Shown here: piece by piece, positions 12,695 through 30,823 of the stretch | How positions within the stretch are numbered: position 1 is the stretch's first letter | Layout of the letters: the number at the start of each line of letters is the position of its first letter | Source: Promethearchaeota archaeon | Lineage (GTDB): Archaea > Asgardarchaeota > Lokiarchaeia > Sigyniarchaeales > SOKP01 | Assembly (NCBI GenBank): GCA_019058365.1 | Contig: JAHPZE010000018.1 | Location: 17,801-81,800, forward strand | Direction of reading: 5' to 3' | Length of the DNA stretch: 64,000 bases | Program-made: the position numbers and the translations under genes | Notes under the pieces: model-generated | Told to the model about the DNA's origin: nothing | The model's database searches: none | Seen by the model: the letters and a program-made list of their open reading frames with translations, nothing else

Positions 12695-12976
12695 ATGAAA
12701 CAATTAACAGAACGCGAAATCCAGTGGTTAGAAGCGTTTGTCAAAAATCATGAATTTTTCGCTTCCTTCCTGCTCCATCACAAATTAAAACATTGTTTAT
12801 CTAATAATCAATATTATTGACTGCATCTTTATATCAATCAAGCAGAGGAGAATGGTGATACTCTACTAACTATTGAGGAAATAACATTTCTGGAAAAAGA
12901 ATCTGAAAACAATGAAAATGTGCAAGAATTACTGGAAATTTATAAAGATAAAGGATATCTGGAAAAGTTGGAATAA
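12695..12976 (+). pseudogene. Truncated, nonsense-bearing paralog of the 5' end of the LRR gene (direct repeat copy 2)
   Basis: MKQLTEREIQWLEAFVKNHEFFASFLLHHKLKHCLSNNQYY*LHLYINQAEENG...; the Trp codon TGG of the 6153 gene is TGA here. Confidence 0.85.
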
Positions 12977-13065: not shown

Positions 13066-13515
13066 ATGAAAAAAAAAATAAAGGTCTGGAGATGTCCTAA
13101 TTGCATGAAAAAGTCAATAATAATTCAAATTAATAATGCTACTTTAGCAGCAAAAATATCATGTGGTTCATGTGACCTATATGTCGAGATGAAAGCAAAA
13201 AAAATTTACGACCCTATTGATGTTTATGGTGATTTTATTGATGAGTACTATGAAAATCCATTAAAACATTCTATGAAGAAAAATAATCTTTCAGATTCAA
13301 AATCAATCATAGTACATATTACTACCCAAAGCATCATTAAATCCTTATTATTGAATTGGAAGAATTTAACTGAAATCAAAGAAGACTTAAATATAGAAAG
13401 TGATCTGGATTTTAGGTACCTAAAGCTCAAGTTAAAAGAACTAGAGAGAAAATTTAAATTGGAAGTTAAACGAATTGGTACAGAAAAATATTGGAGAACT
13501 GTAAAAAAAAAATAA
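13066..13515 (+). CDS. Elf1-like transcription-elongation Zn-ribbon fused to a C-terminal wHTH-like domain
   Basis: WRCPNC...ISCGSCDL...DPIDVYGDFID is the Elf1 signature; extra ~80 aa C-terminal domain. Confidence 0.75.
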   Translation: MKKKIKVWRCPNCMKKSIIIQINNATLAAKISCGSCDLYVEMKAKKIYDPIDVYGDFIDEYYENPLKHSMKKNNLSDSKSIIVHITTQSIIKSLLLNWKNLTEIKEDLNIESDLDFRYLKLKLKELERKFKLEVKRIGTEKYWRTVKKK

Positions 13516-13744
13516 TATTTTATTATTAGTTAAATTTATATATTAGCTTTTTCATATTAATAGTGGCAAAAATTGTTTAATCCAGTAATAAAATTAAACC
13601 CACCTATTGGTTGTTTTATAGCTATATCATAGAAGCCAATGATTAAGTCCTTTAGAAGATTAGAATTGTTTTGATAAGAATTGGATAGAATTGTAAAAAA
13701 ATTAAAATTTAAAGGATATAATAATAAATTGGTGGAAATTTAAG

Positions 13745-14986
13745 ATGAAATATGCTATAGACCTAAATTTAGGTGAATGGGTAACAGTTGATGAATTACT
13801 TGAATATTTCCCAATTGCTTTAAAATATCATAAGTTTACTTGCCCAAAATGTGGTAAACGCGTATCTCCTGTTAAAGCAGTAATTAGAAAAATGCATTTT
13901 AAACATTTAGATGGATCCCCTAATTGCCCCGACTATTTTGGAGGAGGTATATATGATGCAGGAGGCATTTCAAGCGTTAATGTTAGTGGGCTTGCGCGTC
14001 GCAATCCCAATGAAATTTTTGAATTTGTAGGATTTGAGAAATTTTACATTGATGATTATCATTTTTCTGAAGATCTAGAAATAAACACAATTGATGAAAA
14101 ATATCATCCAGATCTAAAACGCAATAAATATTATCTTTGGTTAAAACTTTTAGATGAACTAGAGAGTAAAAACTTTGATATTAATGAATTAGTTCACAGT
14201 ATAGTTTTATTTTCAGAAATTGGTTATCCAGTATTATTTGTTCTTAATCCAAACCTTACACCTTATGGAATGGGGGCGGAAAATCCAATTATTAATACTC
14301 TAGTTAATGGTGTAGGTGTTGTATTCGAAATGCCTCTTTTTACATCTGTTTCACGATTAATTAAAATATGGATCTTGGATTCAGCAGGAGAAGTTATATG
14401 TCCCGGTAAAATCGCTTTTGATTATTTAATAAAGAAGACTAAATTCTCATATAAAGTATTAAAAACCATAATGAAAGATCTGTGTGGGTTTTTTAAAGAA
14501 GACAGTTTTGAATATAGTCAACCAAGATATACTTATACTAATGAGGACTTAATGTTAGAAGTTAAGTGTAGCTGTGGTCAAACTCACTTAATTTATGCCG
14601 TTTGTAATGTTAATTATGAAGTTAAACTCTATTTTATGAAAGGACCTAAGACTTTCACTTACGTTAGTCACATGTATAAATTCAAATGTGATAGATGTGG
14701 AAGGGATTTCTATACTTTTGAAGAACTGAAAGAAGCTTGGACTGAAAAATATATTATTAAACAGAAGGAAAAGCAAAAATCTGAGTTGCAAGAGATCTTA
14801 GACGAACCCCTTGTTGAAGACACTACAGACATATCAATTCTAGATAGAATGGTTAAGATACGATTAGGGGAATACATGGGAGAAATTGGAACCGTAATCA
14901 TGAAAGAGGACGGAGATATTCAAGTAAGATTAGATGAATCAAAAGAAATTATTGAAATAAAAGAAAAATTTGTTATTTATATATGA
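13745..14986 (+). CDS. CoiA-N-like Zn-finger protein with internal Zn motifs and C-terminal KOW-like domain
   Basis: FTCPKCG...HFKH...C; CSCG...CDRC; C-terminal VKIRLGEYMGEIGTV. Confidence 0.55.
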   Translation: MKYAIDLNLGEWVTVDELLEYFPIALKYHKFTCPKCGKRVSPVKAVIRKMHFKHLDGSPNCPDYFGGGIYDAGGISSVNVSGLARRNPNEIFEFVGFEKFYIDDYHFSEDLEINTIDEKYHPDLKRNKYYLWLKLLDELESKNFDINELVHSIVLFSEIGYPVLFVLNPNLTPYGMGAENPIINTLVNGVGVVFEMPLFTSVSRLIKIWILDSAGEVICPGKIAFDYLIKKTKFSYKVLKTIMKDLCGFFKEDSFEYSQPRYTYTNEDLMLEVKCSCGQTHLIYAVCNVNYEVKLYFMKGPKTFTYVSHMYKFKCDRCGRDFYTFEELKEAWTEKYIIKQKEKQKSELQEILDEPLVEDTTDISILDRMVKIRLGEYMGEIGTVIMKEDGDIQVRLDESKEIIEIKEKFVIYI

Positions 14987-15017
14987 AAGAAGAAAAAAAA
15001 TCTAAAGGTAAAATAAT

Positions 15018-18000
15018 ATGGTAATAAGAAAAAACCGAGAATTGATCATTTCTGATTTAGTAGGGACAATGTTAGGACCCAAATATGGATTAACTGAAGT
15101 ATACCATGCAACCATGAATCCCTGGAAAGTTTATCTTACGGGAGTCCTTGCTCCTAATAATGCTGAACCAGACGAAGATGCAGAAAATGAAGATATAGAA
15201 ACAACTATATCTGAGGATAATGATGTTGATGTTTCCCAAATAAGTGATCCAGAAGAATTTACTCCTAGCTTAAGCAGCTCATCTCAACCACAATCCTTTG
15301 GTATTTCATTTATCGCAAGTTCACCAGAAGATTGTGCTATGCTAGATTGTTGTTTTACTTGGGCGCGTTATTTATGGCATCCAGATTGGAGTCGAATTCA
15401 AAAAGAGTATGAAGATAATAAATTAGTGGGTTGGTATGATGAGGACTTTATAAACGAAATTACTAAAAGAGTTCAAGAGGAAGGAGTAAAGAAAAAAGGA
15501 GCAAATGATGAACAGGATGAAGGTGCAAAAGAAGATAATTATGTTGTAGATGAAGAAAAAAAAAAGGGTGGCTCTTTTCTCGTTGAAGATGATTCTGAAG
15601 AACCAGATCTGACCCCTACCATATTTGGTGGATGGAAAAGGGATCCTCGTTACTTAATACTAAAAGGTTTGAAAGTTTGCCCTGATTCTGATAAAATCTT
15701 CATAGATCAATCTACCCTAAAAAATAGTGAAATAATCCAAGAGTTAGATTATACGTTTCCTGAAGAAGATGAGGCATTTCGAATATACATTCGCATAAGA
15801 AAGTTGAGTAATATTACACAAACCAAACTTAATTACTTTCATATCTCTTTATATTTCGTTAATGATGCTGAAAGAATATACATAACGGATTTACCTGAGG
15901 CAGAACAAAAAGTAAGTTTGGGAAAACCTACTGAAGCATATATCTTTCAACCACAGATAAGAATAAAATGTAGAGGTGATACCCAGATTACTTCAGAAGA
16001 ACTACATTCTGCTAAAGAAATTTATTTTGAGAAAGAGGAAGAGATGGATCTTGAGAATGAGAAAGATGAGTTAGAGACATACCTTAAGGGTATAGATTGT
16101 ATATCAAATGAAAAGCCTCCAGAAGATAAAATTCTAAATTTAATTTATATGAAAAAACGGGAAAAAGCTAAAGGACATATGTGCTCTGCAATATGGGACG
16201 AAATTGACCCAGAACGCCCATATGAAAATACAGATGCCATTAGGTCACCACCTTTTTATTGGACAGATGGAGAACTGTTAAAAGATGCTGATCGGAACTA
16301 TTTTTATCTGTCTGATATCAGAACGGAATTTGTACCAATAATCTCTGTTAGTGCTCCCGATTTTAATTGGCGAAGCAAAATTGCTTATTCTAATGGTAAA
16401 ATTATCCAGAGTCCATTAACAGGAAATATGCGTGATGAAACCTTTTTAGATCCACTATTTATTGCTGAAAAATGTTGGGATAGAGAGGTACTAAAGGTTA
16501 CATTTCATGAACTAATTGAGGAATATGAGAATTGGATGAGAGTACAGAGCCAAATAATTTTAAATTCATATGTGTATAAGAGTAATCCCAACATTGCAAG
16601 GATTGCCAAATATAATCTTAGAAACCACTTAAAAATATTTAAAAGAATAAAAAGAGGCTTACAAGTTCTTGATTCAAATCCAGAAGCACGAATCTGCTTT
16701 TGTTATGCGAATAAAGTTATTCAATTACAAAATTACTGGGTTGAGAAAAGAAAGCCCAATCCAATGAAATTCTACTGGAGGCCATTTCAAATTGCCTTCT
16801 TATTGTTATCTATCTCTGGTATAATTAATAAGGATGATGTAGATAGGGATTATATTGATCTCATATGGTTCCCTACAGGAGGGGGGAAAACTGAAGCATA
16901 TTTATTGACAGCAGCATTCACATTAGCATATCGACGTCGCATTGCCTATAAAGATTCGGAAAAATTACCTTTCATCGAGAATGGGACTTATTTAATTTCA
17001 AGATACACATTAAGGTTATTAACAATTCAACAATTTCGAAGGGCAAATCTAATGGTCCTCGCAGCAGATTGTTTAAGAGTAAAGAATTTACCCCAGAAGA
17101 TTGGTAATTCTATTGTTGGATGGATACCAGAGGACTTTGGGGTTAATGATAATCCAGAAGTAAAAAAGCAGTTCGGTTATCTATGGGAGAGTTATAACTG
17201 GATATGGGGGACTCATCGTTTTAGTGTAGGACTATGGGTAGGAAGTGGAATGACACCCAATAGGCTTGAACGATCATGGGCGTTCGGTAGACCTTATTAT
17301 GGCGCTCTAGATGCTCTTAAAGTAAAAATTGATTTAACAAAAGAAACGGAAGAAAAAGCAAGAGCTAATGAAAAGGTAGATGAAGATGATGTAGATCAAG
17401 ATGCTCCCCCTATATCTGATTTTGATGAACAACCACAGGATATAGAAGACAGTAGGACTATAAATAGAAATATCCGTAATGTGGTTAAAGAGATTGGCGA
17501 CCCTGCGCAGATAGTTAACTGTCCTGTCTGCGATGCCGTTTTATCTCTCCCAAAATCGAGGGAACAATACCTTTCCACTGAAATTAATAATTTTTTTCTA
17601 CTTATGAAGGTAAAAGATACAACAATTATTCCAGATGGTAATACTTTAAGAACTAAGCTTGAATTAGTAATAAACAGTTCTGTGAACTTATTTCCATTTA
17701 CAAACAGAATTCTTGGAATTGCTATTTGGAAATCACCCGATATTTATTCAGTAAATTTCTCATTTAAAGCTCGAGATGATAGAAGCTATGATAGCGAAAG
17801 GCTTGAAGAATGGTGGTTAAATTTATCACACCAAATCCCGATGATTGAAATTCTAAGTGTAGATATAAGAAATCCAGGATATTATTACTTACATCATAAT
17901 AATAAATGCTATGATTTTGAAATAAGATGTTGTAATCCAAAATGTGAATTAAACTTAGTTAATTGGGCAGAAGGTACAAATATACCAAATGAAGATACAT

Positions 18001-19970
18001 TTTGGACTAAAAATTCTGATCAATGGATAGAAATTGACACTAAAATAGCAAGATCGATCCCAATTTCTGCTTATACCGTAGATGAACAGATTTACCGAAG
18101 ATTACCCTCATTGGTAATAGGAACAGTTGATAAATTCGCCCAACTAGCCTTTAATGATAATGCAGGCACTATGTTTGGACATTTAGAATTATATTCTCCG
18201 AATTTTGGATTCTTTAAAGAAAATGTAGTTCCAAAAATTGGTGATGTAAGAATCAGAACATTTGATATTGGTCTATTAGATCCTCCCGAAATTATTTTGC
18301 AGGACGAATTACATCTAATTGTTGGACCATTAGGGAGTATGGTTGGTATTTATGAAACTGTTATTGATGAGCTTTGTAAGAGAATGGAGGGTGAAAGAGA
18401 ATTAAGACCAAAATATATTGCTTCAACAGCAACAATTAAAGCGGGAGAGCAACAAACTCAATGCCTATATAATCGTAAATTTTCGATATTTCCTCCTTAT
18501 GGAATCGATGAGACTGATAGTTTCTTTTTAATAAATCAAGATTTACACCCATGTAAAGAAGACGTGCCCGGTCGTCTATATATTGGCTTATGTTGTCCAG
18601 GAAAAAGCGCTCAAACTCCATTATCCCATATATGGGGGTCAATATTCCAAAAAACATTTGAACTCATGCAAAGTATTAAAGATAACCCCGATCCAACATT
18701 TACTATAGATCAAAGAAACGAACAACTCAGGCAATTAGATCCATACTGGACTATAGTGGGATATTTTAATGCTATCCGTGAATTGGCAGGAGTTAGGGCA
18801 GTATATCATCAGGAATTTGTCGCTTGGATGAGATTATTTTACGGTAAAACTAAATTCCGCCCATTTCATGAAAAATTAAATGAACCAATTGAATTATCAA
18901 GCAGAACGGATTCAATTATATTACCTGAATATTTTGAACGGTTAGATAAAAGTTTAAAACTATTAGATGATGGATCGGAGGGGTATAAAGTAAAGGAACC
19001 TGTAAATGGTGTTTTAACTACAAGTATGTTTGGAACAGGGGTAGATGTTGTTAGATTAGGTGTTATGGTTGTTAATGGACAACCAAAAACTACTGCAAGT
19101 TATATACAAGCAACTGGAAGGATAGGAAGGAGAATTGGAGGGATAGCTACTATCTTACTTAGAGCAGGTCGCCCCAGAGATCTAGACCATTATGAACGAT
19201 TCTCAGGGTATCACAGGGCTATTTATAAATATGTAGAACCGATTACAGTTATGCCATTTTCACTAAATTGTATGAAAATAGCATTTGGGCCGTTAGCTGT
19301 AGCCCTTTTGAGACAATCAAAGAATATAAAAAATCTCCTTATCTCAACTAGCTGGCGGGGTAAGCAAAAAGGGCATACTAATATCCTCAATCTAAGTCAA
19401 CTATCTGGTACTCCGGTTTCAACACCTGTTGAACCTATTAATTCCATGGAATTTAATCAAATTATTAAAGTCTTTGAAGACAGGCTCCAAACACAAGACA
19501 CTGATCGTAAACCAAAACAAGAACATTACGATGAGGCAAAAAATGAATTTTTTGAAAAATCTGGTAGATGGCAGGAATATGCGATTAATATTAAGGTGAA
19601 GAAAGCCTTTACTTATAGCGAAGCAACAATAGATAACCCCCCAAGTAAATCAGTTGTCCTTGGAGATCCACAACATCAAGTTGCAGCAAGTAAACCTAAA
19701 AGAGCAACCTCCACAGCCCCATTAATCCACGTAGTGTTTCAAAATTCACCCATGTCTTTACGTGGAGTTGAAAAAATGACTACTTTTGGAATCTTTGCAG
19801 ATTATAAAAAAACTAAAGAGAAAATTGAAAGAAAGACCATGAGGAAAAGTAGGGGAAATAAGAAACCCAGCAAAATGCCAGCTAAAAAAACCGAGAAAAA
19901 TCCTCCAAAATCAGGACCTGTAAGAGGAGTAAAGAGAAAACCACCAATGGGGGTTTTTAGACGTACGTGA
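15018..19970 (+). CDS. drmA: DISARM helicase DrmA
   Basis: WRPFQ, WFPTGGGKTEAY, SRYTLRLLT, GTVDKFAQ, QDELHLI.GPLGS, STATI, GVDV.RL, GQPKTTASYIQATGRIGR, RPRDLDHYE; adjacent to a DUF1998 gene. Confidence 0.92.
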   Translation: MVIRKNRELIISDLVGTMLGPKYGLTEVYHATMNPWKVYLTGVLAPNNAEPDEDAENEDIETTISEDNDVDVSQISDPEEFTPSLSSSSQPQSFGISFIASSPEDCAMLDCCFTWARYLWHPDWSRIQKEYEDNKLVGWYDEDFINEITKRVQEEGVKKKGANDEQDEGAKEDNYVVDEEKKKGGSFLVEDDSEEPDLTPTIFGGWKRDPRYLILKGLKVCPDSDKIFIDQSTLKNSEIIQELDYTFPEEDEAFRIYIRIRKLSNITQTKLNYFHISLYFVNDAERIYITDLPEAEQKVSLGKPTEAYIFQPQIRIKCRGDTQITSEELHSAKEIYFEKEEEMDLENEKDELETYLKGIDCISNEKPPEDKILNLIYMKKREKAKGHMCSAIWDEIDPERPYENTDAIRSPPFYWTDGELLKDADRNYFYLSDIRTEFVPIISVSAPDFNWRSKIAYSNGKIIQSPLTGNMRDETFLDPLFIAEKCWDREVLKVTFHELIEEYENWMRVQSQIILNSYVYKSNPNIARIAKYNLRNHLKIFKRIKRGLQVLDSNPEARICFCYANKVIQLQNYWVEKRKPNPMKFYWRPFQIAFLLLSISGIINKDDVDRDYIDLIWFPTGGGKTEAYLLTAAFTLAYRRRIAYKDSEKLPFIENGTYLISRYTLRLLTIQQFRRANLMVLAADCLRVKNLPQKIGNSIVGWIPEDFGVNDNPEVKKQFGYLWESYNWIWGTHRFSVGLWVGSGMTPNRLERSWAFGRPYYGALDALKVKIDLTKETEEKARANEKVDEDDVDQDAPPISDFDEQPQDIEDSRTINRNIRNVVKEIGDPAQIVNCPVCDAVLSLPKSREQYLSTEINNFFLLMKVKDTTIIPDGNTLRTKLELVINSSVNLFPFTNRILGIAIWKSPDIYSVNFSFKARDDRSYDSERLEEWWLNLSHQIPMIEILSVDIRNPGYYYLHHNNKCYDFEIRCCNPKCELNLVNWAEGTNIPNEDTFWTKNSDQWIEIDTKIARSIPISAYTVDEQIYRRLPSLVIGTVDKFAQLAFNDNAGTMFGHLELYSPNFGFFKENVVPKIGDVRIRTFDIGLLDPPEIILQDELHLIVGPLGSMVGIYETVIDELCKRMEGERELRPKYIASTATIKAGEQQTQCLYNRKFSIFPPYGIDETDSFFLINQDLHPCKEDVPGRLYIGLCCPGKSAQTPLSHIWGSIFQKTFELMQSIKDNPDPTFTIDQRNEQLRQLDPYWTIVGYFNAIRELAGVRAVYHQEFVAWMRLFYGKTKFRPFHEKLNEPIELSSRTDSIILPEYFERLDKSLKLLDDGSEGYKVKEPVNGVLTTSMFGTGVDVVRLGVMVVNGQPKTTASYIQATGRIGRRIGGIATILLRAGRPRDLDHYERFSGYHRAIYKYVEPITVMPFSLNCMKIAFGPLAVALLRQSKNIKNLLISTSWRGKQKGHTNILNLSQLSGTPVSTPVEPINSMEFNQIIKVFEDRLQTQDTDRKPKQEHYDEAKNEFFEKSGRWQEYAINIKVKKAFTYSEATIDNPPSKSVVLGDPQHQVAASKPKRATSTAPLIHVVFQNSPMSLRGVEKMTTFGIFADYKKTKEKIERKTMRKSRGNKKPSKMPAKKTEKNPPKSGPVRGVKRKPPMGVFRRT

Positions 19971-20021
19971 TGTTTATGAAAATATATATTAATAAGATAA
20001 TTAAATGAGAGGGAATATTTT

Positions 20022-22190
20022 ATGGCAAAAAGACCAAGAATTAGAAGAAGGGTGAATGAAAGAAGGGTAGTTTTACCCATGAATCCACTCCAGTTAAGAC
20101 CTTCACAATTTATTACTACTTATGGTGTAGGTGCTCTTGTTGATGGACGTCAGGGGTCATCAATTATTTTGGAGTTTGAAAAATCAGAATTATTCCCTTC
20201 AACTAAACCTGATTTGGGAACAGATGAATTTATCTGTTATGTGGTTGCATTACCAGGAGCATCCCGATTATCAAAAGTTTTAGAAAATAAAAACGCAGAG
20301 CGTAAGGAAATCGGCCTATTCAGAATGATTACAAATTCTGATTTAAATGTTGAAGACAGATTTGAAATATATAAAACACTACGTTTCCCTGAATATTCTC
20401 TATGCAATAAGCACGGGAATACACAAATTATTTACCATCGCCATTATCCCAGAGATTTTGAAAAAGGAATATTCGGGATTTGCCCTAAATGTCTAGCTGA
20501 TCCTGAAAGAAACACTCAGAATTATCAAAGTGATCAAGAGGTTATTCGCTTCATCCAAATTTGCAAAAATGGCCATTTAAATGATGTGGATTGGAATTAC
20601 GAGGTCCATAGAAAAAAAATTCAGGGAACTACGGATAGACCATGTAAATTTACTCATCTAGAATGGATCGAGGAGGGGTCTGAATTGCAATATGTAAAGA
20701 TAAAGTGTCCTCACTGTCATGAAAGTATCAATTTAAAACAACTTAAAAATAGAAAAATAAGATGTAGAAGAGGAATGCCATGGAAGGGAAAGGAGACAAC
20801 AATACAAGGAAGGTCCCGAATATCTGAAGATCATTTTCCTTGCGATGAATATGTCCAAATTATCCAGCGAAATGCCTCAAATGTCTTCATTTCTCAATTA
20901 ATCACTTCAATTTCTTTACCAAAGGAAGCCAATGCATTTTATCGCACTCTAAATTATAAAATTATTATTAATGAGATGTACAATAATTTAATAATTGACT
21001 TCTCTACGCTTTTCCACTTTTATGAAACTCATCAAGCAGAGGAAACCATTAAACAAAATCCTGGCTTTGGTGACTCTTTTGAAATTCTAAAAAAAATAAG
21101 AACAATGGGAGCACAGGAAATTAGTAAAGCTGAAGATATTATCTCTTATTTCATTAATGATGTATTGAAAGCTAGTGGTACTTTTGATGAGATGGACCTA
21201 AGAAGAGAAGAGTTTAGAGCATTTAAAACTGGAGAATCAGAAAGTAGTCTAAAAATTGACCCAAATTTAGTAATTGAAGATCCTATTGAAGTTGATTATC
21301 AATGGATGGGAACAATCCCAATTACATTTAGAGTTACCCCAATACCAAAACTAGAGGCTATTCTTGTTCAAAAAGGTTTTCAACGGATTGCCAGACCACC
21401 AAAATCTAAAGAAGAAAGACATGAAACTGATATTTCACATGCTACAACAAGGAGAACTCCCTATATTGATGTTAATGGACATCATTGGTACCTATCAGAA
21501 AAATTACAAGGGGAGGGAATATTTATTACTTTAAAAAATCCAAAAATCTTAGGTTTTTCAGACGAAAATAGTAAAAAATGGAAATATATGGAAGAATTAG
21601 TAAATCTATTCCCCCAATACTATAAAACGGAGGGTGAAGAAAATGGAGGTGGATCTGAAGATGATAAAGCTCCTCTCAATAATAAACTTACTAGCGATGA
21701 TTCTGGGGAAGTTTCTAAAGAATCAATAGAGGATGCTGCATATGCTTACTCATTTTTCGGTAGAAATTTTGAAGCTTTTGCAAATCCGTTAGGAACATGG
21801 TGGCATACTTTGGCACATCGATTAATACTCGCTCTATCACTAGATTGTGGATATTCGAGTGCAGCTCTACGAGAAAGGTTATACATCGATGGAGAAGAAG
21901 GTGGAGTGCTAATCTTCGCAACACAGGCTGGAGAGGATGGTACTCTAGGAGGACTTATTTCACAAGCTCAAGAATACAGATTTAAAGAAATTCTCGAACT
22001 TGCTCTATCCAATATTAATAACTGTTCAAATGATCCTAATTGTCTTGAAAGTAATATCGATGATAATCTATTTGGGGCCCGAGCCCCCAATGGAGCAGCA
22101 TGCTATGCATGTCTTTTTCTATCTGAGACTTCTTGTGAATTTGGTAACATTGGACTTGATAGAAAATTACTCATAAATAATCCAAGTTAA
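20022..22190 (+). CDS. drmB: DISARM DrmB (DUF1998 domain)
   Basis: LRPSQFITTYGVGALV; HTLAHRLI...CGYSSAALRERLY; DGTLGGL; CSNDPNC...GAACYAC...ETSCE.GN..LDR. Confidence 0.92.
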   Translation: MAKRPRIRRRVNERRVVLPMNPLQLRPSQFITTYGVGALVDGRQGSSIILEFEKSELFPSTKPDLGTDEFICYVVALPGASRLSKVLENKNAERKEIGLFRMITNSDLNVEDRFEIYKTLRFPEYSLCNKHGNTQIIYHRHYPRDFEKGIFGICPKCLADPERNTQNYQSDQEVIRFIQICKNGHLNDVDWNYEVHRKKIQGTTDRPCKFTHLEWIEEGSELQYVKIKCPHCHESINLKQLKNRKIRCRRGMPWKGKETTIQGRSRISEDHFPCDEYVQIIQRNASNVFISQLITSISLPKEANAFYRTLNYKIIINEMYNNLIIDFSTLFHFYETHQAEETIKQNPGFGDSFEILKKIRTMGAQEISKAEDIISYFINDVLKASGTFDEMDLRREEFRAFKTGESESSLKIDPNLVIEDPIEVDYQWMGTIPITFRVTPIPKLEAILVQKGFQRIARPPKSKEERHETDISHATTRRTPYIDVNGHHWYLSEKLQGEGIFITLKNPKILGFSDENSKKWKYMEELVNLFPQYYKTEGEENGGGSEDDKAPLNNKLTSDDSGEVSKESIEDAAYAYSFFGRNFEAFANPLGTWWHTLAHRLILALSLDCGYSSAALRERLYIDGEEGGVLIFATQAGEDGTLGGLISQAQEYRFKEILELALSNINNCSNDPNCLESNIDDNLFGARAPNGAACYACLFLSETSCEFGNIGLDRKLLINNPS

Positions 22191-22204
22191 ATTATAATAA
22201 TTAG

Positions 22205-24199
22205 GTGTTAAAAATAACTGATATACTCTCAAAATATGAAACAACCAAAATCTCACAAAAAATGCTAATAAAAGGAGAACCTGGAACAGGTAAAACTGAA
22301 CTATTTGCTAAGCGAGTCGTCCACCTAATTGAAGAAGAAGGGTTAGAACCTAGAGCCATATTAATCTTAAGCTTTACGCGAAATTCGGTACGCGAAATGA
22401 AGGATAGAATCAAGAAGATATTAAAAAAAACATCTCCTCAGGTATTTAATAAATTAAAAATAATGACATTTGATAGATTTGCCGCAAAAATCCTGCAAGA
22501 TGATAGAGAATATAGGGTTTTTGACAATAAATTTGAGACAAATATCTCTAATGCCGTCTCGTTTTTATTAGATTATACAAATAGAAGTGAAGATTTTCAA
22601 TATTTCTTTAGTCGTATAAGATATGTAATTGTTGATGAGATTCAAGATCTATATTATGGTCGTGCTGCTATGTTACAATGCATTTTTTCAACTCTCGCTC
22701 GGATCCAAGATCAATGGGGTTACTTACTCCTATTAGATGAGTGTCAGGAGATATTCTCTTATATGGAAAAAAAAGGAGAAAAATCTGAACTGGGGAATTT
22801 TTTTAAGCGTTCCAAGAATTTTGTTGAATGGGCTATAAAATGGACTGAGAAAAATTATCCTGATGATTTTATAAATGAAATGTTGGATATTCCTATGAGT
22901 GAGAATATACGATTTAAAGACTTAAAAAATGGAAAATTATGTTCCATTATGAAAACGGCACGCTTCATTCTTACAAATCACCCTGATAATATAAAAAAAC
23001 TTAAAAGTTTAAAAAATCGCTTTCCATTAATTACCATTCAAGGAGAGGAAGAATTTTTTCATTTACTTAGAGATAATGAAGATAAAAACAAAACAACTTG
23101 TCTATTATTCAGAGGTAATGAAACGGCAACAAATTTCTCTCTTAAGCTGTACCAGCAAAATCCTCCTTTCAATCACATATATCAATTAAGCAACCAAAGT
23201 AAGGTATTTCCCAATTGGATTGCATTTTCAGTTAAAAATAGTATTAGGGATGATTTAAACTTATCAGATAGTGCTTATATAGAAAAGGAAAAGTATATCG
23301 AGATTTGGAATTTGATGAATTTACAACCAAAATTTAACTTAGATGCTGATAATGCATGGAACTTCCTTTCTTTTATGGCTACAGAAAGTGAAGATGAGGA
23401 ATACATCGACCTCGAGAAATTGAAGTATGGGCTATTGCGGAACTACTCGGATTCATTATTAACAGAATATGGTTATAATGCTGCACCAATTATAATTTCA
23501 AATATACACAAGTCCAAAGGTCGTGAGTATGATTATGTCTTCTTAGAGGATGCATCTCTACCAAATGGAAAAATGTTTGATTTGGATTCCGTACAATTAT
23601 TTGCTAGGTTAAATTATGTTGCACTAACTCGTTGCAGGAAAGACTTCAAATTATTATCTTCCACCCATCGTAGTTTTTATAATTATCGAACTAATGATGA
23701 ATATGAGAATCTAGGTCAGTTTATTTTTAAAATTAAAGAAAAAGATAATGAGAAAATCTTAGAAAAGATCTCATTTTTATTATCTAATGAGGAAAATTCT
23801 AATAACAAACAAGAAAAAATATGGAATTTAAAACTGGGAGAACCTGTAAAAGTTGTAGTAAAAGTTGATCCTCCTGAAAAATTTGCACGAGTGTATATTT
23901 TAAACCAAAATCCTAATAAGAAAAATGAAGAGCTCTGTGTAATAACAGAATCTTATACAAAAAGAATAATTAAGAAAATTAATGGTTTATTGGACAATAC
24001 TGATATAAGCAAAGAGAAAATAAAAAGAAGAAATGATAACACATACACCCTTGTGGGTGCTAGAATAGTAAGCTTAAACACGGAATTATTACCCCCAAAT
24101 GTTAAGGAATTCAATCAAGTAGATATACCCCTTAAAGATTTTCTAATTGGGTATTGGTTAGGCTTTAGAATAATGGGGCCGCTCTATATAAAAAATTAA
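22205..24199 (+). CDS. UvrD/Rep-family SF1 helicase
   Basis: GEPGTGKT, LSFTRNS, VDEIQD, IHKSKGREYD, YVALTR. Confidence 0.88.
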   Translation: MLKITDILSKYETTKISQKMLIKGEPGTGKTELFAKRVVHLIEEEGLEPRAILILSFTRNSVREMKDRIKKILKKTSPQVFNKLKIMTFDRFAAKILQDDREYRVFDNKFETNISNAVSFLLDYTNRSEDFQYFFSRIRYVIVDEIQDLYYGRAAMLQCIFSTLARIQDQWGYLLLLDECQEIFSYMEKKGEKSELGNFFKRSKNFVEWAIKWTEKNYPDDFINEMLDIPMSENIRFKDLKNGKLCSIMKTARFILTNHPDNIKKLKSLKNRFPLITIQGEEEFFHLLRDNEDKNKTTCLLFRGNETATNFSLKLYQQNPPFNHIYQLSNQSKVFPNWIAFSVKNSIRDDLNLSDSAYIEKEKYIEIWNLMNLQPKFNLDADNAWNFLSFMATESEDEEYIDLEKLKYGLLRNYSDSLLTEYGYNAAPIIISNIHKSKGREYDYVFLEDASLPNGKMFDLDSVQLFARLNYVALTRCRKDFKLLSSTHRSFYNYRTNDEYENLGQFIFKIKEKDNEKILEKISFLLSNEENSNNKQEKIWNLKLGEPVKVVVKVDPPEKFARVYILNQNPNKKNEELCVITESYTKRIIKKINGLLDNTDISKEKIKRRNDNTYTLVGARIVSLNTELLPPNVKEFNQVDIPLKDFLIGYWLGFRIMGPLYIKN

Positions 24200-24202
24200 T
24201 CG

Positions 24203-26101
24203 GTGAATAAGATGGTTAAAAAATTTCCTTCTACTGAAAATGACCTAAGACTTAAAAGGCCTGATGTTCCACGTTCAGAAATGATATTTTATGAGATTAT
24301 TGATGATTTAAGCGATAACTGGGTCGTATGGCATTCAGTTGAATGGATAGATGAACCAGAAATGAGAGTAGGAGAAGCTGATTTTCTAATATTCAATCAT
24401 AACTATGGATTTTTAGTAATTGAAGTGAAAGGTGGAATTATAACATATGAAGATGATATTTTTTACCAAAAGAATCAAAAAACTGAAAATATAACAAAAA
24501 TACAAGACCCTTTCTATCAAGCAAGGAAATCTACATATTTTTTCAGAGATTACTATACGAAAAAAGCTTTGTTAGAATCTAATCCAAGAGAACTTTTGTA
24601 TTTTTCAGGAAAGAGAGGAAACTTTCCACTATATTATAATTACGGAGTCTTCTTTCCGGGGTCATATTTTAAGAATGATAATGAAGGACTAGCTGGAAGT
24701 CTTAGAACTCCTTTCGATAAGATTTTTGATATATCAGACTATAAAGAACAAGAGACTTGGGTTGAAGAAAATCAAAAAGGAATCACACTTTCTCCATTGG
24801 AAAAATTTCTTATTAACTTATTTAAAGGATTCAAGAAGAGAAGCCTAAAGTTCCCAAGACTAAAAGATTACTTCCCAAAATTAATTAGTCCAAATATAGT
24901 TACAGCTTTTAGGTTAAATCGGTATTTAGAGGAGAGAAATGAGGAACTTATGGGCATAAATGAAGAACAAAATATGATTCTTGATTCACTCTATGCTAAA
25001 CCCCATTGCATTTTTAAAGGAAGCGCTGGATCTGGAAAAACATTTATGGCTATAAAAAAAGCATTAATGAATTACCAAGAGGGCAAAAGAACGCTATTTC
25101 TCTGTTTTAATAAAGAATTACGTGATTTTCTATATTATTATTTCTCAAAAGAATTCAAGCGTAAAGATAGTGCTTGGCATAAAAAAATTCAAGTTTATTC
25201 CATAAATCTTTATTTAAGTGTTATTTGCGAAAAACTATTTGATTTTGATACAATAAAACAAATAAAAAATGAGATTTTTAATTTCCAGTATGAAAATGTA
25301 GCTCATAAGATAAAAACTGAAGTTGAGAGTCAAAAGTTTACATCATCCTATAAGTTCGATGCCGTACTCGTAGATGAGGCTCAGGATATGGATGAAAATC
25401 TATGGGATCTGTTCATTTACTTTTTAAATGATCCCCAAAAATCAATTTATTATATTTTTTATGACCCAGAACAAGCGCTATTTGTCGAAAACTTTGATCC
25501 CAATAGATTTGGGTTAGATATGGGTAATGATCTAATCTTACGTCAAAGAAATATAAGGAATACAACACAGATTGCTCAGTGGCTTAAAGATAAAACTACT
25601 TATGGTGAATACAAGGAATTTTCCGGTATTAAAGGTTTTAATATAGATGATAACAACCAGTTTGATAACCCTGTAGAGGCGATAAACTTTATAATTAACG
25701 AAGTTAAAGACAACATCCTAAAATCTGAAGTGGAACCAGAGAAAATTGGTATACTATCTTTTTTCAAGTTAAATACGGTCTTTAATAAAGTACGGGAGAA
25801 TGATCTCTGTAAATACCTATGGTTCAAGAATGAAGAGGAACCTAAATTCGATTCTATGTTTATAGTAGAACCAAATAATGTTAAAGACTTACCTATAATA
25901 AAACGAACATTAAATAAATGGGTTTTATTATTTACGACTATCTCGTCATTCAAAGGCCTCGAAAAGGATATTATTTTTCTTTTAGTTCCAAAACTGGAAT
26001 TATTTAAAAAGGAAAACCCTAATCAGTATAAATTTTTCCTAATGCAAATTTATGTAGGAGCATCTAGAGCTAAATTTAAATTATATTTAGTGGAATATTA
26101 A
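24203..26101 (+). CDS. NERD nuclease fused to SF1-type helicase
   Basis: GEADFLIF...VIEVKGG...PFYQA; GSAGSGKT; VDEAQD; SSFKGLE; YVGASRA. Confidence 0.88.
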   Translation: MNKMVKKFPSTENDLRLKRPDVPRSEMIFYEIIDDLSDNWVVWHSVEWIDEPEMRVGEADFLIFNHNYGFLVIEVKGGIITYEDDIFYQKNQKTENITKIQDPFYQARKSTYFFRDYYTKKALLESNPRELLYFSGKRGNFPLYYNYGVFFPGSYFKNDNEGLAGSLRTPFDKIFDISDYKEQETWVEENQKGITLSPLEKFLINLFKGFKKRSLKFPRLKDYFPKLISPNIVTAFRLNRYLEERNEELMGINEEQNMILDSLYAKPHCIFKGSAGSGKTFMAIKKALMNYQEGKRTLFLCFNKELRDFLYYYFSKEFKRKDSAWHKKIQVYSINLYLSVICEKLFDFDTIKQIKNEIFNFQYENVAHKIKTEVESQKFTSSYKFDAVLVDEAQDMDENLWDLFIYFLNDPQKSIYYIFYDPEQALFVENFDPNRFGLDMGNDLILRQRNIRNTTQIAQWLKDKTTYGEYKEFSGIKGFNIDDNNQFDNPVEAINFIINEVKDNILKSEVEPEKIGILSFFKLNTVFNKVRENDLCKYLWFKNEEEPKFDSMFIVEPNNVKDLPIIKRTLNKWVLLFTTISSFKGLEKDIIFLLVPKLELFKKENPNQYKFFLMQIYVGASRAKFKLYLVEY

Positions 26102-26141
26102 CTCATTTTAAATTTGTTGTGACTTTATGGATCCTATATAA

Positions 26142-26792
26142 ATGGATAAAAATAAGGCATTTTTTAATGAAAATATTGTAAAATGGGGTAAATCAAACTT
26201 AAGGGATTTTCCATGGAGGAAAAACATTACCCCTTATAGAATCTTGATAGGAGAACTACTTTTACAGAGAACTACTTCTAAACAAGTCGATGATGTATTC
26301 AATGAGTTTATTGATGAATATCCTATACCAAAAGATTTAGCTGAAAGTGATGTAGACAAAATTCTAGAAATTATCAAGCCCCTTGGGCTTTATAGACGTG
26401 CTAATGCACTTTTCAAGCTCGCAAATCAATTAGAAAACGAACATTTAGGAGTGATACCTAAAAATTATACAGATTTAATTAAACTATTTGGAGTGGGAAA
26501 GTACATAGCAAATACGGTCCTCTGTTTTAGCTTCAATGAACGAGTTCCGATAGTTGATACAAATGTGATAAGAATTTTCAAGAGGTTTTTTAACTTCAAA
26601 TCTGATAAAAAATACATTGAATCAGATAAAAAAATCTGGGAATTTGCAGAAAGTCTATTACCAAAAAATGATTGCCGATTGTATAACTATTCTTTACTGG
26701 ATTTTGGTAATTTAGTCTGTAGACCAAAAAATCCAGAATGTCAAGACTGTATAATACGGGAAAAATGCGTTTATTATAACAACAAGTTATAA
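26142..26792 (+). CDS. HhH-GPD [4Fe-4S] DNA glycosylase, MIG (T:G mismatch)/MutY-like
   Basis: RDFPWR..PYRILIGELLLQRT, GVGKY, VDTNVIR, CRPKNPECQDCIIREKC; no MutY C-terminal domain. Confidence 0.85.
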   Translation: MDKNKAFFNENIVKWGKSNLRDFPWRKNITPYRILIGELLLQRTTSKQVDDVFNEFIDEYPIPKDLAESDVDKILEIIKPLGLYRRANALFKLANQLENEHLGVIPKNYTDLIKLFGVGKYIANTVLCFSFNERVPIVDTNVIRIFKRFFNFKSDKKYIESDKKIWEFAESLLPKNDCRLYNYSLLDFGNLVCRPKNPECQDCIIREKCVYYNNKL

Positions 26793-28037
26793 TTATATCT
26801 CTATTTGTATTTTTTTAGCAAAGAAAATCGATTGTTTAACTTCTTCTTTAGATTCAAGGAGGACATTTATAATTAGATCCTGTTGCTCCTTGAATAATAC
26901 TTCTCCCCCTCTTCCCTTGAAATCACCCGTAATAAACTCAATTCTATCTCCAATTTCAATCTCACGGGCATTTTTGATATATGATTTAATAATGTCTATC
27001 CATTTATATATATTAAATAATTCTTTAGAACAAGAGTTACATATAAATATTTGAAACAAATCCTTATGTATTAATCCAGTATGGCGAATTATTCTATAAT
27101 TGAAATTCCATTTATAGGGTAAGGCGAGTACTAAGTTAATTGGATTATAACACGCCTTACAATTACCTACCCTTTCAAAATATCCAAAATATATACCCTC
27201 TCCTAAGTGAGGCCTTATATAGGGATTTATAATCTCTTGAAATTTATTGTATAAGAATTTATGGTTGTATAATACATTTAAAGGAATATGGTCATATTTT
27301 ATAATTTTCTCTTGACGATTAGAATATTTCCATACTCGATTATTGGGTAAAAAATATGAAGGTCTAATATTCGATTCTATAACATAATCAATATCAATTA
27401 ACTTTAAGTTTTTAAAACAACTAAATAAAGAACTCTCTTCGAATTGTGCATATTTTTCAATGAATTTATAATCGAGATAAACGATATTAATAATTCCGGG
27501 ACAAATCGAACTAAAATTCGCTATTTGATGATTAAAACAATCTACAAATTCCTTATCTTTCAAGCATTCTATAAAATTAATGATGGGATAAACCCAGAAG
27601 AAAATAGTTTTTATAACTGAATCGGTTTTGAATTCCTTGAAGAAGGATGGGATTATCCTATATATATAATCTTTATCAAAATTATTCCAATACTTAAATT
27701 GTTTACAATTTAGTGTTTTTAAAAATAAATCGCTTGGAGTTCTAATTATATTTATACTGTTATCTAAATTAACACTAAAGTTCTCCCCTTTATTCCCTGT
27801 ATAAAATGGACAAATTCCAATCTTTTTGCTCCCAATGTGTTTGAAATGTGATTTTCTATTGTAATTCTTAGAACGAAGTACAAAACTGATAGGTAAGAAA
27901 CATATGGGGCATCTAAAACTAAAGTAGTCATTTATATTGTCATATTGTTGAATACTTTTTAAATAATTCAAGATAAATGTTTCAACTTCTAAAGCTGTTA
28001 TTAATTCGTTAGATCCAGATAATATTGCATACTTCAA
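26793..28037 (-). CDS. CoiA-N-like Zn-finger protein with C-terminal Spt5/NusG-like KOW domain (same architecture as 13745-14986)
   Basis: FRCPIC...HFKH...C; CKAC...CNSC; IEIGDRIEFITGDFKGRGGEV. Confidence 0.6.
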   Translation of the reverse strand: MKYAILSGSNELITALEVETFILNYLKSIQQYDNINDYFSFRCPICFLPISFVLRSKNYNRKSHFKHIGSKKIGICPFYTGNKGENFSVNLDNSINIIRTPSDLFLKTLNCKQFKYWNNFDKDYIYRIIPSFFKEFKTDSVIKTIFFWVYPIINFIECLKDKEFVDCFNHQIANFSSICPGIINIVYLDYKFIEKYAQFEESSLFSCFKNLKLIDIDYVIESNIRPSYFLPNNRVWKYSNRQEKIIKYDHIPLNVLYNHKFLYNKFQEIINPYIRPHLGEGIYFGYFERVGNCKACYNPINLVLALPYKWNFNYRIIRHTGLIHKDLFQIFICNSCSKELFNIYKWIDIIKSYIKNAREIEIGDRIEFITGDFKGRGGEVLFKEQQDLIINVLLESKEEVKQSIFFAKKIQIEI

Positions 28038-28060: not shown

Positions 28061-30265
28061 TTACACAAAGTTTTGAATTACCTGTTTCAGCTGTTCTTTA
28101 TCAATTGTTGAATTTGATAGTATCCAACTAAAAATCTTTTCCATTAATATTACCATCCTATCTACTGAGTGAAAAATATCATTTGGAATTAGATTGACAA
28201 GATCGGAGATATTCTGAGATTTGTTGTTCATATAAAGCTTTTTAGCGTCCTTTAAATCACCATCGATAACCTCATACTCATTAATGAGTTCTATATTTTT
28301 ACTAGGTGTTTTAAACCCTTTTTTTTCAACAATTTCTTTTGATTTTATCTTTTCTAATTCTTCTTGTTGTTCTGCTAGTCTTTTCTTTTCAGCTTCAATT
28401 AGATCTCTTTGTTTTCTTAATCTTTCTTCTTCTTCTCTAAGGATTTCCTCTTGTTTTCTCTTCTCCTCTAAGAATTTCTTTTTCTCATCAATAATTTCTT
28501 TCTTTTGTTCATATATTCTCTTTATCCTAATTTCCTCAGCTATTTTCTTCTTTTCCTCATTCCTCTTTATGATTTGTTTATTTTTAGTTATTATCTCATC
28601 GACTTTCCGTACAAATTGTTCAATATTTCTAGAGAATTCCTTTATCGTTTTATCAAAATCACCTGATTTTGGGCCTGTTTTTAAAGTTTCCTTTGAAGCA
28701 GTTTTTAAATTATTGAAAAACAGCTTTATTTCATCTAATTCATTCTCTTCTTCTACTGATAGAATTTCACTTGATTCTAAGTCTAATTTATATTTCTTCA
28801 ATATGTCATCAAATTTTTCTAAAACATCCATCCAACATTTAATTAAACCAATAAAATTGTTATCATTAGATGGGTCTTTATTAAATTCTTCTTTTGCAGA
28901 CTTATAAATAATTGAAGTGTTTATTTGAATGCTAAATTTTTCTAATTCTTTCTCCAAACCCTCATATAATTCTTCATAATGATTTTGATATCTTTTTGCA
29001 GCCTGTGCCTTTTTCCTTTGCCTTTCGCCGGCTTCTGCCACTTCAACTAACCAGTTGGCAATCTCTTCTCTCACTTTTTTCCAATAATCATTTGAAATTA
29101 TAGAATCTCGACTGCTTTTGGGATTTAGATGTTCAGAGAAGAGATAAATTTCTCCCCACATATTATCAAGGGGATGGCTTTTTAATGATCTCTTGTCAGT
29201 TTTCGCCCATTCCCAAACATCATTAGAGTTATATATTAGAACATTATATAATCTGACTATTATTCCTCTGAAATAGTAGTCAGAAAATTGAGGGGCTGCG
29301 ATTTTCTCTGTTGAACCCCTAAACACAGCCCATCCAGCACCAACTAACTCATTATTAATCTTAAAATCTTTTGCGAGAAAAAAGTATTTTGGGGACAAAA
29401 TGTTGTCTTTTGGTATTGGTTTTTTTATCATAATATTTTTAGTCTGCTTCAAATCAGGAAGATTTCTGTAATGAACCTGTATTTCGTTATAATTATAGTT
29501 CAATGGAATGAATATTTCATCATTAACCTTTATTTTACCAAACTTTTTTCCACTTAAAATGGAATATATATTCTCCTTTAGTAATTCTTTTCCCTCTTCA
29601 TCCTCATTTAGATTATAATCAGTGATAGAAAGATTATTTAACCCATCTTCAAAATCCACTGGCACTACTCTAGATAATTTAAAAATAAATTTCGGGTCGA
29701 GCATTTCCCTGAATTTTTTAGGCGTTATTTCATGTAATGTTATAATAGTTCCATGATATTTCTTTTCTTCTTCATCTTTAGTATCGACTTCTTTCTGGAA
29801 AGATATTATTACATCACTGATATATTTTTTACTTGGATCCTTTAAATCCTCCATCCATTGCCATATTGGAATTCTTCTAATATGCCAATATTCTTCATCT
29901 TTTTTTTTTGACCGAATAATTATATCTTTACATATTTTACCTGCAGAGTATATACCTATCCCAATTTCACCTATAGGAGGAAAGTTTGTTTTTTTATCTT
30001 TAGTTTTAGGACTAACCATTATATCCAAACATTCATTAATTTCATTTTTATCCATACCGATTCCAGTATCCATGATCATTAAATCTCGCTCATCATAATC
30101 TATATAGAGATCAATTTTGGTACTTTTAGCATCTATTGAATTTGATATATATTCCCTCAAAACATACTCACAATTATCATATAATTCTGATGTAAATGCA
30201 TCTAAAATTCTTTTTCCAATTTGAGTATCTTTATAAGGTATTTCTTCTCCTTCTTTTATCCCCAT
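28061..30265 (-). CDS. GHKL (HATPase_c/MORC-like) ATPase with long C-terminal coiled coil
   Basis: LREYISNSIDA, DTGIGM, IGEIGIG, HGTIITL; E/K-rich coiled coil. Confidence 0.82.
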   Translation of the reverse strand: MGIKEGEEIPYKDTQIGKRILDAFTSELYDNCEYVLREYISNSIDAKSTKIDLYIDYDERDLMIMDTGIGMDKNEINECLDIMVSPKTKDKKTNFPPIGEIGIGIYSAGKICKDIIIRSKKKDEEYWHIRRIPIWQWMEDLKDPSKKYISDVIISFQKEVDTKDEEEKKYHGTIITLHEITPKKFREMLDPKFIFKLSRVVPVDFEDGLNNLSITDYNLNEDEEGKELLKENIYSILSGKKFGKIKVNDEIFIPLNYNYNEIQVHYRNLPDLKQTKNIMIKKPIPKDNILSPKYFFLAKDFKINNELVGAGWAVFRGSTEKIAAPQFSDYYFRGIIVRLYNVLIYNSNDVWEWAKTDKRSLKSHPLDNMWGEIYLFSEHLNPKSSRDSIISNDYWKKVREEIANWLVEVAEAGERQRKKAQAAKRYQNHYEELYEGLEKELEKFSIQINTSIIYKSAKEEFNKDPSNDNNFIGLIKCWMDVLEKFDDILKKYKLDLESSEILSVEEENELDEIKLFFNNLKTASKETLKTGPKSGDFDKTIKEFSRNIEQFVRKVDEIITKNKQIIKRNEEKKKIAEEIRIKRIYEQKKEIIDEKKKFLEEKRKQEEILREEEERLRKQRDLIEAEKKRLAEQQEELEKIKSKEIVEKKGFKTPSKNIELINEYEVIDGDLKDAKKLYMNNKSQNISDLVNLIPNDIFHSVDRMVILMEKIFSWILSNSTIDKEQLKQVIQNFV

Positions 30266-30823
30266 ATTCTATCTCTCTATTCTTAAATACGTAATTTCAA
30301 TTGAATATTTCTATAATTAATATTATTTTTTGTCTTTTTATGCTATAGGATGAATTCTTGATTTTTTCCTATATCATAAAATACTATATTCTTCTATATA
30401 AATTTTAAGAATTTAATTATTTCTTAATCCTGTCAAATTTAGGAGTCATTTAAACCAACTGGGTAATATATCGATAAAAAGTTAGAGATCTACAATAATT
30501 TAGTAAATCAAAAATTAAAATAAATGTAAAAATAGCATTAATAATTCAAAATGACCTGAATATTATTAAATACATATTAATGAAGAGAAAATCTTAATCC
30601 ATTAAACCCTTTCAATTATTAAATGTTTATGGTTTAATAAAAGTAATGTAATCGCTAACATTATTGGATAAGATGTGTTTGAAAAAGGAGAATGAGTAAA
30701 TCTTTTATAAAGAAATTACTCACCCAAGATGAATATATTCAATAGACGATCAACTCGAAAGCCTTTTAAAAACTTCTTATAGCTATGGTTTTTTTAAAGC
30801 AACTAACCTATATCTACAAATTA

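Follow-up and report, generated by a model that had tools for sequence, protein, structure and literature searches.

We analysed a 64,000-nucleotide stretch of the genome of a Promethearchaeota archaeon (GenBank assembly GCA_019058365.1, 100% complete; contig JAHPZE010000018.1, positions 17,801–81,800; hereafter the window), in which ten genes between 13.0 and 32.2 kb constitute a defence module of Loki-type Asgard archaea that is rare and derives from DISARM. Nine of them form two convergent operons, and the tenth, the Elf1L gene, lies separately just upstream. Three of the ten encode proteins with domains of the type found in transcription elongation complexes: Elf1L, an Elf1–winged helix-turn-helix (wHTH) protein, and ZK1 and ZK2, two zinc-finger–KOW proteins. 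A preliminary description of this DNA had reported all three, and each is present with the architecture it gave. We regard it as very probable that they are dedicated parts of the DISARM-derived system, and neither housekeeping factors nor chance neighbours. The mechanism that fits best is that they couple the system to RNA polymerase, a tentative reading to which we assign a probability of roughly 0.4. The link to polymerase is drawn because we know of no role for the Elf1 fold or its ribbon outside RNA-polymerase binding, because the helix responsible for that binding is kept in Elf1L, and because Spt5-type KOW domains are encoded in the same locus.

Architecture of Elf1L, ZK1 and ZK2

Elf1L (149 residues; 13066–13515, plus strand) is composed of a zinc ribbon (residues 6–66; nt 13081–13263), a disordered linker and a wHTH domain (residues 85–149; nt 13318–13512). 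The ribbon matches Pfam PF05129 with 55.4 bits against a gathering threshold of 29.8, its four cysteines are kept in all full-length Elf1L homologues, and an AlphaFold2 (AF2) model submitted to fold searches superposes on ELOF1 of Pol II complexes. Against the NCBIfam Elf1 equivalog model the protein scores 68 bits, under the cut-off of 109. A separate, housekeeping-type elf1, of the type found in nearly all Lokiarchaeia searched, sits on contig C35 of the genome, and spt5, with the genome's sole NGN domain, lies on contig C39. Hence Elf1L is not the only Elf1 of this organism but a second, divergent copy.

Housekeeping Elf1 opens with a basic tail (MGRRKRK...), which is followed by the ribbon and by a long helical, acidic tail ending in DDPGFLEF. 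Aligned with it, Elf1L is 13 basic residues shorter at the N terminus and has no acidic tail at the C terminus. The best-conserved segment between Elf1L and housekeeping Loki Elf1 is the DVYGDFID helix, with consensus identity at 10 of 15 positions compared with 18 of 40 in the ribbon. A serine–aspartate pair in this helix (S72/D73 of ELOF1) is required for binding to Pol II (RPB2) in yeast and human (preprint 10.1101/2021.02.25.432427); in Elf1L, as in housekeeping Loki Elf1, the pair is glycine–aspartate, the aspartate being kept. Elf1L retains the polymerase-binding helix, and binding to polymerase is predicted from its sequence. What it has in common with Elf1 and ELOF1 is thus the four-cysteine ribbon, the helix motif and a superposable fold, whereas it departs from them as a second copy with a sub-equivalog score, without either tail, with an added wHTH, at a defence-island site and without a 31-nt insert that is described below for the housekeeping gene.

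The best matches of the wHTH domain in fold searches are repressors of the ArsR/SmtB/MarR/PadR families. Elf1L-type wHTH domains also form the C termini of a 1,113-residue Topo VI-B and of a Topo-I-type C4 zinc-ribbon protein (G000:C35:246755-246949, equivalent to L041:1501-1695, and L042:362-547). This unusually long Topo VI-B, with its wHTH C terminus, is conserved in many Lokiarchaeia. The domain is a mobile, Loki-specific module.

These findings bear on the main rival explanation, which posits no link to RNA polymerase. Elf1L would then be a zinc-ribbon/wHTH regulator of transcription in the island, and ZK1 and ZK2 would be DNA- or single-stranded-DNA-binding specificity or loading subunits of the helicase pair DrmAB and of a GHKL ATPase, their KOW barrels serving as generic SH3-like binders of nucleic acid. 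The resemblance of the wHTH to repressors argues for such a role, as do its recurrence on two DNA-handling proteins, the intergenic regions that flank Elf1L, the loss of KOW from two ZK1 lineages (see below) and the frequency of zinc-binding modules in YprA-type defence helicases. However, an Elf1 ribbon is known only for polymerase binding, and it is precisely the polymerase-binding helix that is best conserved. Moreover, a search for operator-like repeats around Elf1L/ZK1 and in the gap between the methylase and GHKL genes was dominated by AT-rich chance matches and yielded no convincing palindrome, and the Elf1 and KOW domains that co-occur here are adjacent on polymerase in solved complexes (5xog, among the fold-search matches). 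We consider a regulator with DNA-binding partner subunits possible, if on balance doubtful.

ZK1 (13745–14986, plus strand), the first gene product of the drmA operon, comprises a CoiA_N-like C-C-H-C finger (residues 33–61), an alpha/beta middle domain, a four-cysteine ribbon (residues 275–318), a helical linker and a KOW barrel (residues 363–413; nt 14831–14983). ZK2 (26793–28037, minus strand, TTG start) has the identical architecture, with its KOW motif at residues 359–414 (nt 26796–26963). Pairwise BLAST aligns only the ends of the two proteins. Profiles of their clades share 365 aligned columns (hhalign probability 97.2%, E = 3.7e-11), and the ligands of both zinc sites are invariant, C-C-H-C at the N terminus (CPxC ... 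HFKH ... C) and C-C-C-C near residues 275–318. By this profile comparison ZK1 and ZK2 are paralogues, and the common architecture first proposed for them is borne out.

The C termini, given as Spt5-like KOW domains in the preliminary description, are KOW-type barrels. The AF2 model of ZK1 (12 sequences; pLDDT 42) is usable for its KOW part alone, and fold searches with that region return KOW hits, with SH3 and Tudor folds within 1–2 Z units. Profile searches of the PDB with both ZK clades gave nothing significant; below significance, the ZK2 clade profile singles out the KOW motifs of uL24, eL26 and Spt5. When the ZK2 clade profile is compared with the genome's own Spt5, the KOW motif is the only segment to align (pairwise E = 7.8e-4). 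ZK1 and ZK2 accordingly have the KOW domain of Spt5/NusG but no match to NGN, the remainder of each protein being zinc fingers and an extra domain.

Sub-threshold Pfam matches among the 15 family members were to DUF7830 (10), CoiA_N (8, best E = 0.0064), KOW (4) and KOW4_SPT5 (4). CoiA is a competence protein and a D-loop nuclease of the PD-(D/E)xK type (PMC13663708, PMC1189080). The earlier label 'CoiA-like' holds at most for the N-terminal CPxC ... HFKH ... C finger, which resembles CoiA_N at sub-threshold scores, and not for the CoiA nuclease domain, of which no trace was detected: none of the 15 members has a Pfam match to CoiA_nuc, and hhalign of the ZK profile with the genome's own CoiA-like protein gives a probability of 0.6%. 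Homology of ZK1 and ZK2 to the CoiA nuclease is not supported by these comparisons.

The same results weigh on the proposal that ZK1 and ZK2 are CoiA-like nucleases standing in for the DISARM effector DrmC. The finger motif in 8 of 15 members would suit that role, as would two weak ESM Atlas leads, one at 0.88 to a cluster of which 17% of members carry CoiA_N and one at 0.79, from the middle region, to a 'competence protein' cluster, and DrmC and its phospholipase D (PLD) family are missing from the whole genome. Besides the undetected nuclease domain, however, the middle domain has a single acidic residue that is invariant across both clades (E195 in ZK1, equivalent to E221 in ZK2), and a NERD domain encoded in the locus would already provide a nuclease. 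We judge this proposal highly improbable.

The DISARM core and gene order of the locus

ZK1 is followed on the plus strand by DrmA, DrmB, a UvrD-like helicase, a NERD-helicase and a Mig-type glycosylase, and is opposed on the minus strand by a C5 methylase, the GHKL ATPase and ZK2. DrmA (15018–19970), the SF2 helicase of DISARM in its long form of 1,650 residues, scores 1114.8 bits with the NCBIfam model DISARM_DrmAL (cut-off 999) and 1119 bits with PADLOC DrmA. Its DUF1998/MZB zinc-binding partner DrmB (20022–22190), which also matches Pfam MZB, reaches 378 bits with DrmB_fam (cut-off 240) and 423 bits with PADLOC DrmB. Judged by these scores, both are genuine DISARM members. The UvrD/PcrA-like SF1 helicase (22205–24199) matches Pfam UvrD-helicase with 78.9 bits together with UvrD_C, and is GajB-like in PADLOC. 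In the next protein (24203–26101) a NERD domain, related to PD-(D/E)xK nucleases, is fused to an SF1 helicase (Pfam NERD 35 bits plus helicase domains; PADLOC RTasNERD-Hel 154 bits); this domain is the sole recognizable nuclease candidate within the locus.

The last plus-strand gene (26142–26792) encodes an HhH-GPD glycosylase of the MutY/Mig type (Pfam HhH-GPD 69 bits; PADLOC 'Type II nicking endonuclease' 152 bits), which scores 181 bits with TIGR mutY, under that model's cut-off. Mig-type glycosylases are usually paired with C5 methylases, repairing the T:G mismatches left by deamination of 5-methylcytosine (5mC). The C5 cytosine methylase (Dcm, DrmMII-like; 30824–32122, minus strand; Pfam DNA_methylase 234 bits) is fitted better by generic type II methylase models (PADLOC MTase_II, 342 bits) than by DrmMII (203 bits). 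The GHKL ATPase (734 residues; 28061–30265, minus strand) is MORC/MutL-like, with 57.9 bits to Pfam HATPase_c_3.

Genes follow one another closely within each block: 31 nt separate ZK1 from drmA, 51 nt drmA from drmB and 23 nt the GHKL gene from ZK2. Longer gaps separate Elf1L from ZK1 (230 nt) and dcm from the GHKL gene (558 nt). The ZK2 and glycosylase genes abut tail to tail, their ends exactly meeting. The opposite-strand position of ZK2, which was originally taken to close or frame the locus, is thus confirmed, but its role as a boundary is not: ZK2 is co-transcribed with the GHKL gene as the final gene of a GHKL(-dcm) operon that belongs to the same conserved module. Within the 558-nt gap an imperfect 30-nt palindrome (TGAGTAA ... 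TTACTCA) occupies positions 30693–30722; it is a possible operator candidate in an AT-rich region where chance matches are common. Upstream of Elf1L, a short stop-broken reading frame (MKQLTEREIQWLEAF...; 12696–12975, plus strand) may be a decayed small gene.

The locus has neither DrmC, DrmD nor DrmE. No PLD matches were found among the locus proteins, and the PLD model PF13091 has none in the entire genome, whereas 12 control genomes match it; PADLOC recognized no DrmD (SNF2) or DrmE among the scanned proteins encoded at 7260–35024. As summarized in PMC11529989, which cites Ofir 2018, DISARM class 2 consists of DrmE, DrmA, DrmB, DrmC and DrmMII, and a structure of DrmAB has been described (PMC9142583). 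The canonical class 2 system has been reported in Asgard archaea of the Freyarchaeia (PMC11529989). The present locus has in common with class 2 its DrmA (long form) and DrmB and the C5 cytosine methylase next to them, but adds a UvrD-like helicase, a NERD-helicase, a Mig glycosylase, a GHKL ATPase, the two ZK paralogues and the Elf1–wHTH protein. Neither the literature searched nor PADLOC 2.0 contains a DISARM system with such partners, in agreement with the preliminary description, and within that literature this is an undescribed variant.

Among published helicase-based defence systems with a basal transcription domain, TALON comes closest. TALON/TOTE systems combine a YprA-like helicase, a NERD nuclease, a TPR-CSD protein and a TATA-binding protein (TBP) (bioRxiv 10.1101/2025.09.15.676423). 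Common to TALON and the present locus are a YprA-family helicase, a NERD nuclease and a domain recruited from the basal transcription machinery. TALON, however, is bacterial, mainly from Chloroflexota, and uses TBP with an ARMADA-like fused helicase, whereas the locus described here belongs to an Asgard archaeon, has its core split into DrmA and DrmB, and draws on the elongation-factor domains Elf1 and KOW. The survey of YprA helicases that covers ARMADA, BRIGADE and TALON mentions no Elf1, KOW, CoiA or Asgard variant, and a literature search for Elf1 or KOW in conflict systems retrieved transcription papers only.

Distribution of the locus and its relation to RNA polymerase

The ZK family is very small. 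A profile search of 1.84 billion proteins yielded 10 representatives, and word-based searches yielded 3 and 8 close homologues. When the family profile was run against 400 Asgard species genomes, with four candidates scored per genome, confident matches were confined to the source genome, with none in the 399 others. Outside the source genome, searches with ZK1 alone against 161 genomes of the class and with the family profile against the 400 genomes of the phylum gave marginal matches (best E = 2e-4) and no credible member. Even DrmB is uncommon across the class: 5 of 161 genomes match it, just one of them over the cut-off. A look-alike comparison for windows related to this one found none, and IMG/VR contains no relatives of ZK1, ZK2 or Elf1L.

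Gene order could be read directly on three JGI/NCBI metagenome contigs, L047 (13.5 kb), L049 (20.8 of 28.7 kb) and L048. In L047 and L049, Dcm–GHKL–ZK2 opposes glycosylase–NERD–UvrD–DrmB(–DrmA), and L048 has GHKL–ZK2–glycosylase. The GHKL ATPase is 74–81% identical and unchanged in position in all three, and Dcm is 87–89% identical in the two contigs that carry it. L049 combines close and distant genes: ZK2 (70%), GHKL (76%), the glycosylase (78%) and Dcm (89%) remain similar, whereas its helicase block has diverged to 46% (DrmA), 43% (DrmB), 28% (UvrD) and 34% (NERD-helicase) identity. Hence the association survives strong divergence or replacement of the core.

On further contigs, genes were joined by identical nucleotide size and source, a criterion by which we infer linkage and for which a chance match is very unlikely. 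By this means Elf1L (P0028), ZK1 (P0033) and ZK2 (P0010) would share a 30,801-nt contig, ZK1 (P0016) and ZK2 (P0011) a 20,194-nt contig, and Elf1L (P0025) and ZK1 (P0004) an 8,284-nt contig, while a 206-residue ZK1 remnant (P0019) would accompany ZK2 on the 28,709-nt contig of L049. The ZK family and drmAB are found together wherever flanks are readable or could be inferred in this way.

This bears on the notion that Elf1L, ZK1 and ZK2 are chance neighbours or hitch-hiking island genes that contribute nothing to the DISARM-like system. Defence genes are densely packed in the window and the known loci are probably all from close relatives, as this explanation would expect. Yet all readable contigs keep the gene order, even with DrmA and DrmB down to 43–46% identity, the gaps to the motor genes are very short, and the ZK family was not found away from this type of locus. 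A chance association is therefore very hard to credit.

A proposed division of labour can be sketched from known families. The methylase would mark self DNA and the glycosylase would repair deaminated 5mC. DrmAB and the two SF1 helicases would be the motors that act on unmodified invading DNA, with the NERD domain replacing the absent PLD nuclease DrmC. If the three proteins couple the system to polymerase, the Elf1L helix would bind the Rpb2/Rpo2 lobe of the enzyme and, with a wHTH in place of the basic and acidic tails, Elf1L could sit on elongating polymerase while holding DNA or a partner. Each ZK would be the adaptor of its co-transcribed motor, ZK1 of DrmA and ZK2 of GHKL; through its zinc fingers and Spt5-type KOW it could attach that motor to the elongation complex or to the nucleic acids there. 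The system would thereby sense or attack foreign DNA at the site of its transcription.

Several observations weigh against coupling to polymerase. The basic tail that contacts downstream DNA in Elf1 is missing from Elf1L, and folding alone may account for the conservation of the Elf1 helix. Both KOW/SH3-like barrels and wHTH domains bind nucleic acids and proteins generically, and AF2 gives the ZK middle domain, some 200 residues long, a pLDDT below 50, too low for a usable model. KOW is gone from two ZK1 lineages, P0016 together with P0030 of the same cluster (370 residues) and P0019 (206 residues; contig SDBV01002278.1, beyond L049), the last without the whole middle domain as well; ZK2 is intact on the contigs that bear these variants. 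This loss weakens the case for an essential KOW role. Elf1L lies 230 nt away from ZK1 and is probably transcribed apart from the drmA operon, from its own promoter, and the probable close kinship of the known loci means that they represent few independent events.

Invader sensing by DISARM is only partly understood, and its accessory genes are highly variable. In eukaryotes ELOF1 links stalled polymerase to repair, and Asgards are the archaeal lineage closest to eukaryotes. The variant described here exchanges DrmC, DrmD and DrmE for three private proteins made of elongation-complex-type domains in that very lineage. Should they bind polymerase, the locus would represent transcription-coupled immunity in archaea and would offer a small, tractable set of proteins (149 and about 413 residues) with which to study how helicase-based defence is targeted. 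The fullest form of this idea, an Asgard immune system physically wired to transcribing RNA polymerase by its own paralogues of elongation-factor parts (Elf1 joined to a wHTH, and Spt5-type KOW carried by the zinc-finger adaptors of DrmA and of a MORC-like ATPase) that recognizes or destroys invading DNA co-transcriptionally, as a prokaryotic counterpart of ELOF1-dependent transcription-coupled surveillance in eukaryotes, strikes us as unlikely at present, though far from implausible. If the proteins do not bind polymerase, the locus still yields two new protein families as markers of a DISARM subtype which current defence-finder models would call incomplete.

Other Elf1 genes and the flanking island

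The lineage contains a further, partly degenerate Elf1 beside defence genes. In a genome of the same genus (G057), a full-length housekeeping-type copy ending in DDPGFLEF (G057:C7:29685-30275, or L072:7685-8275; minus strand) has its first CxxC decayed to SPNC and lies 13.7 kb from a normal elf1 on the same contig. Its neighbours encode a DrmMII-like C5 methylase, a Mig-like glycosylase, a BrxP/SspD-like PAPS reductase and an LmuB-like SMC protein. Together with the present locus, this places a spare Elf1 beside Dcm/Mig modules at least twice in the genus.

Such copies recall a guard function or the decoy function raised in the preliminary description. Elf1L and the KOW proteins would present surfaces like those of the host's Elf1 and Spt5, and a viral attacker of the elongation machinery, on binding them, would switch on the helicase/nuclease module. 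Second copies of host-factor domains inside a defence island, the absence from Elf1L of the functional tails of the housekeeping protein, and the decayed G057 copy next to a Dcm/Mig/BrxP-like island would all be expected of decoys. On the other hand, this work turned up no viral protein that inhibits Elf1 or Spt5 of archaea, though no dedicated literature search was made, IMG/VR is without relatives of the three proteins, and ZK1 and ZK2 have only KOW and not the NGN domain by which Spt5 is anchored. We therefore think a decoy function improbable, and place it, with the nuclease and chance-neighbour explanations, below both the regulator model and coupling to polymerase.

The housekeeping elf1 itself (contig C35, L002:1398-2007, plus strand) is broken inside its first CxxC by 31 nt. 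The insert follows CPE, starts with TGA and is flanked by a GAATG repeat, and its excision restores both CPEC and the reading frame. An insert at the same site, with compensatory changes in the hairpin, is present in the source genome and in seven of the eight same-genus genomes fetched (L051–L053, L055–L058), while exactly those 31 nt are missing from L031, L035 and L037. The exon flanks pair (TTCACC/GGTGAA), with a minimum free energy of −18.8 kcal/mol (z = −2.6). This conservation with compensatory changes points to a tRNA-type (bulge–helix–bulge) intron in the mRNA, an assignment made from comparison of the sequences, and on the same grounds an assembly error or ribosomal bypass was dropped as an explanation. 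The Elf1L gene is without this insert.

The defence genes that flank the locus encode an AspBHI-like methyl-directed restriction enzyme, an HNH protein and an LmuB-like SMC protein. The AspBHI-like enzyme, which is 5mC-directed (PADLOC mREase_II, 478 bits; 9940–11154, plus strand), and the HNH protein (8441–9691, minus strand) are encoded a few kilobases from a locus that itself encodes a cytosine methylase. In another genome (G079, contig C183), a Sec23/Sec24-like protein with trunk and beta-sandwich domains (L073:4999-6666) is encoded near a short, 82-residue Elf1 copy; as a eukaryote-signature protein it agrees with the Asgard assignment.

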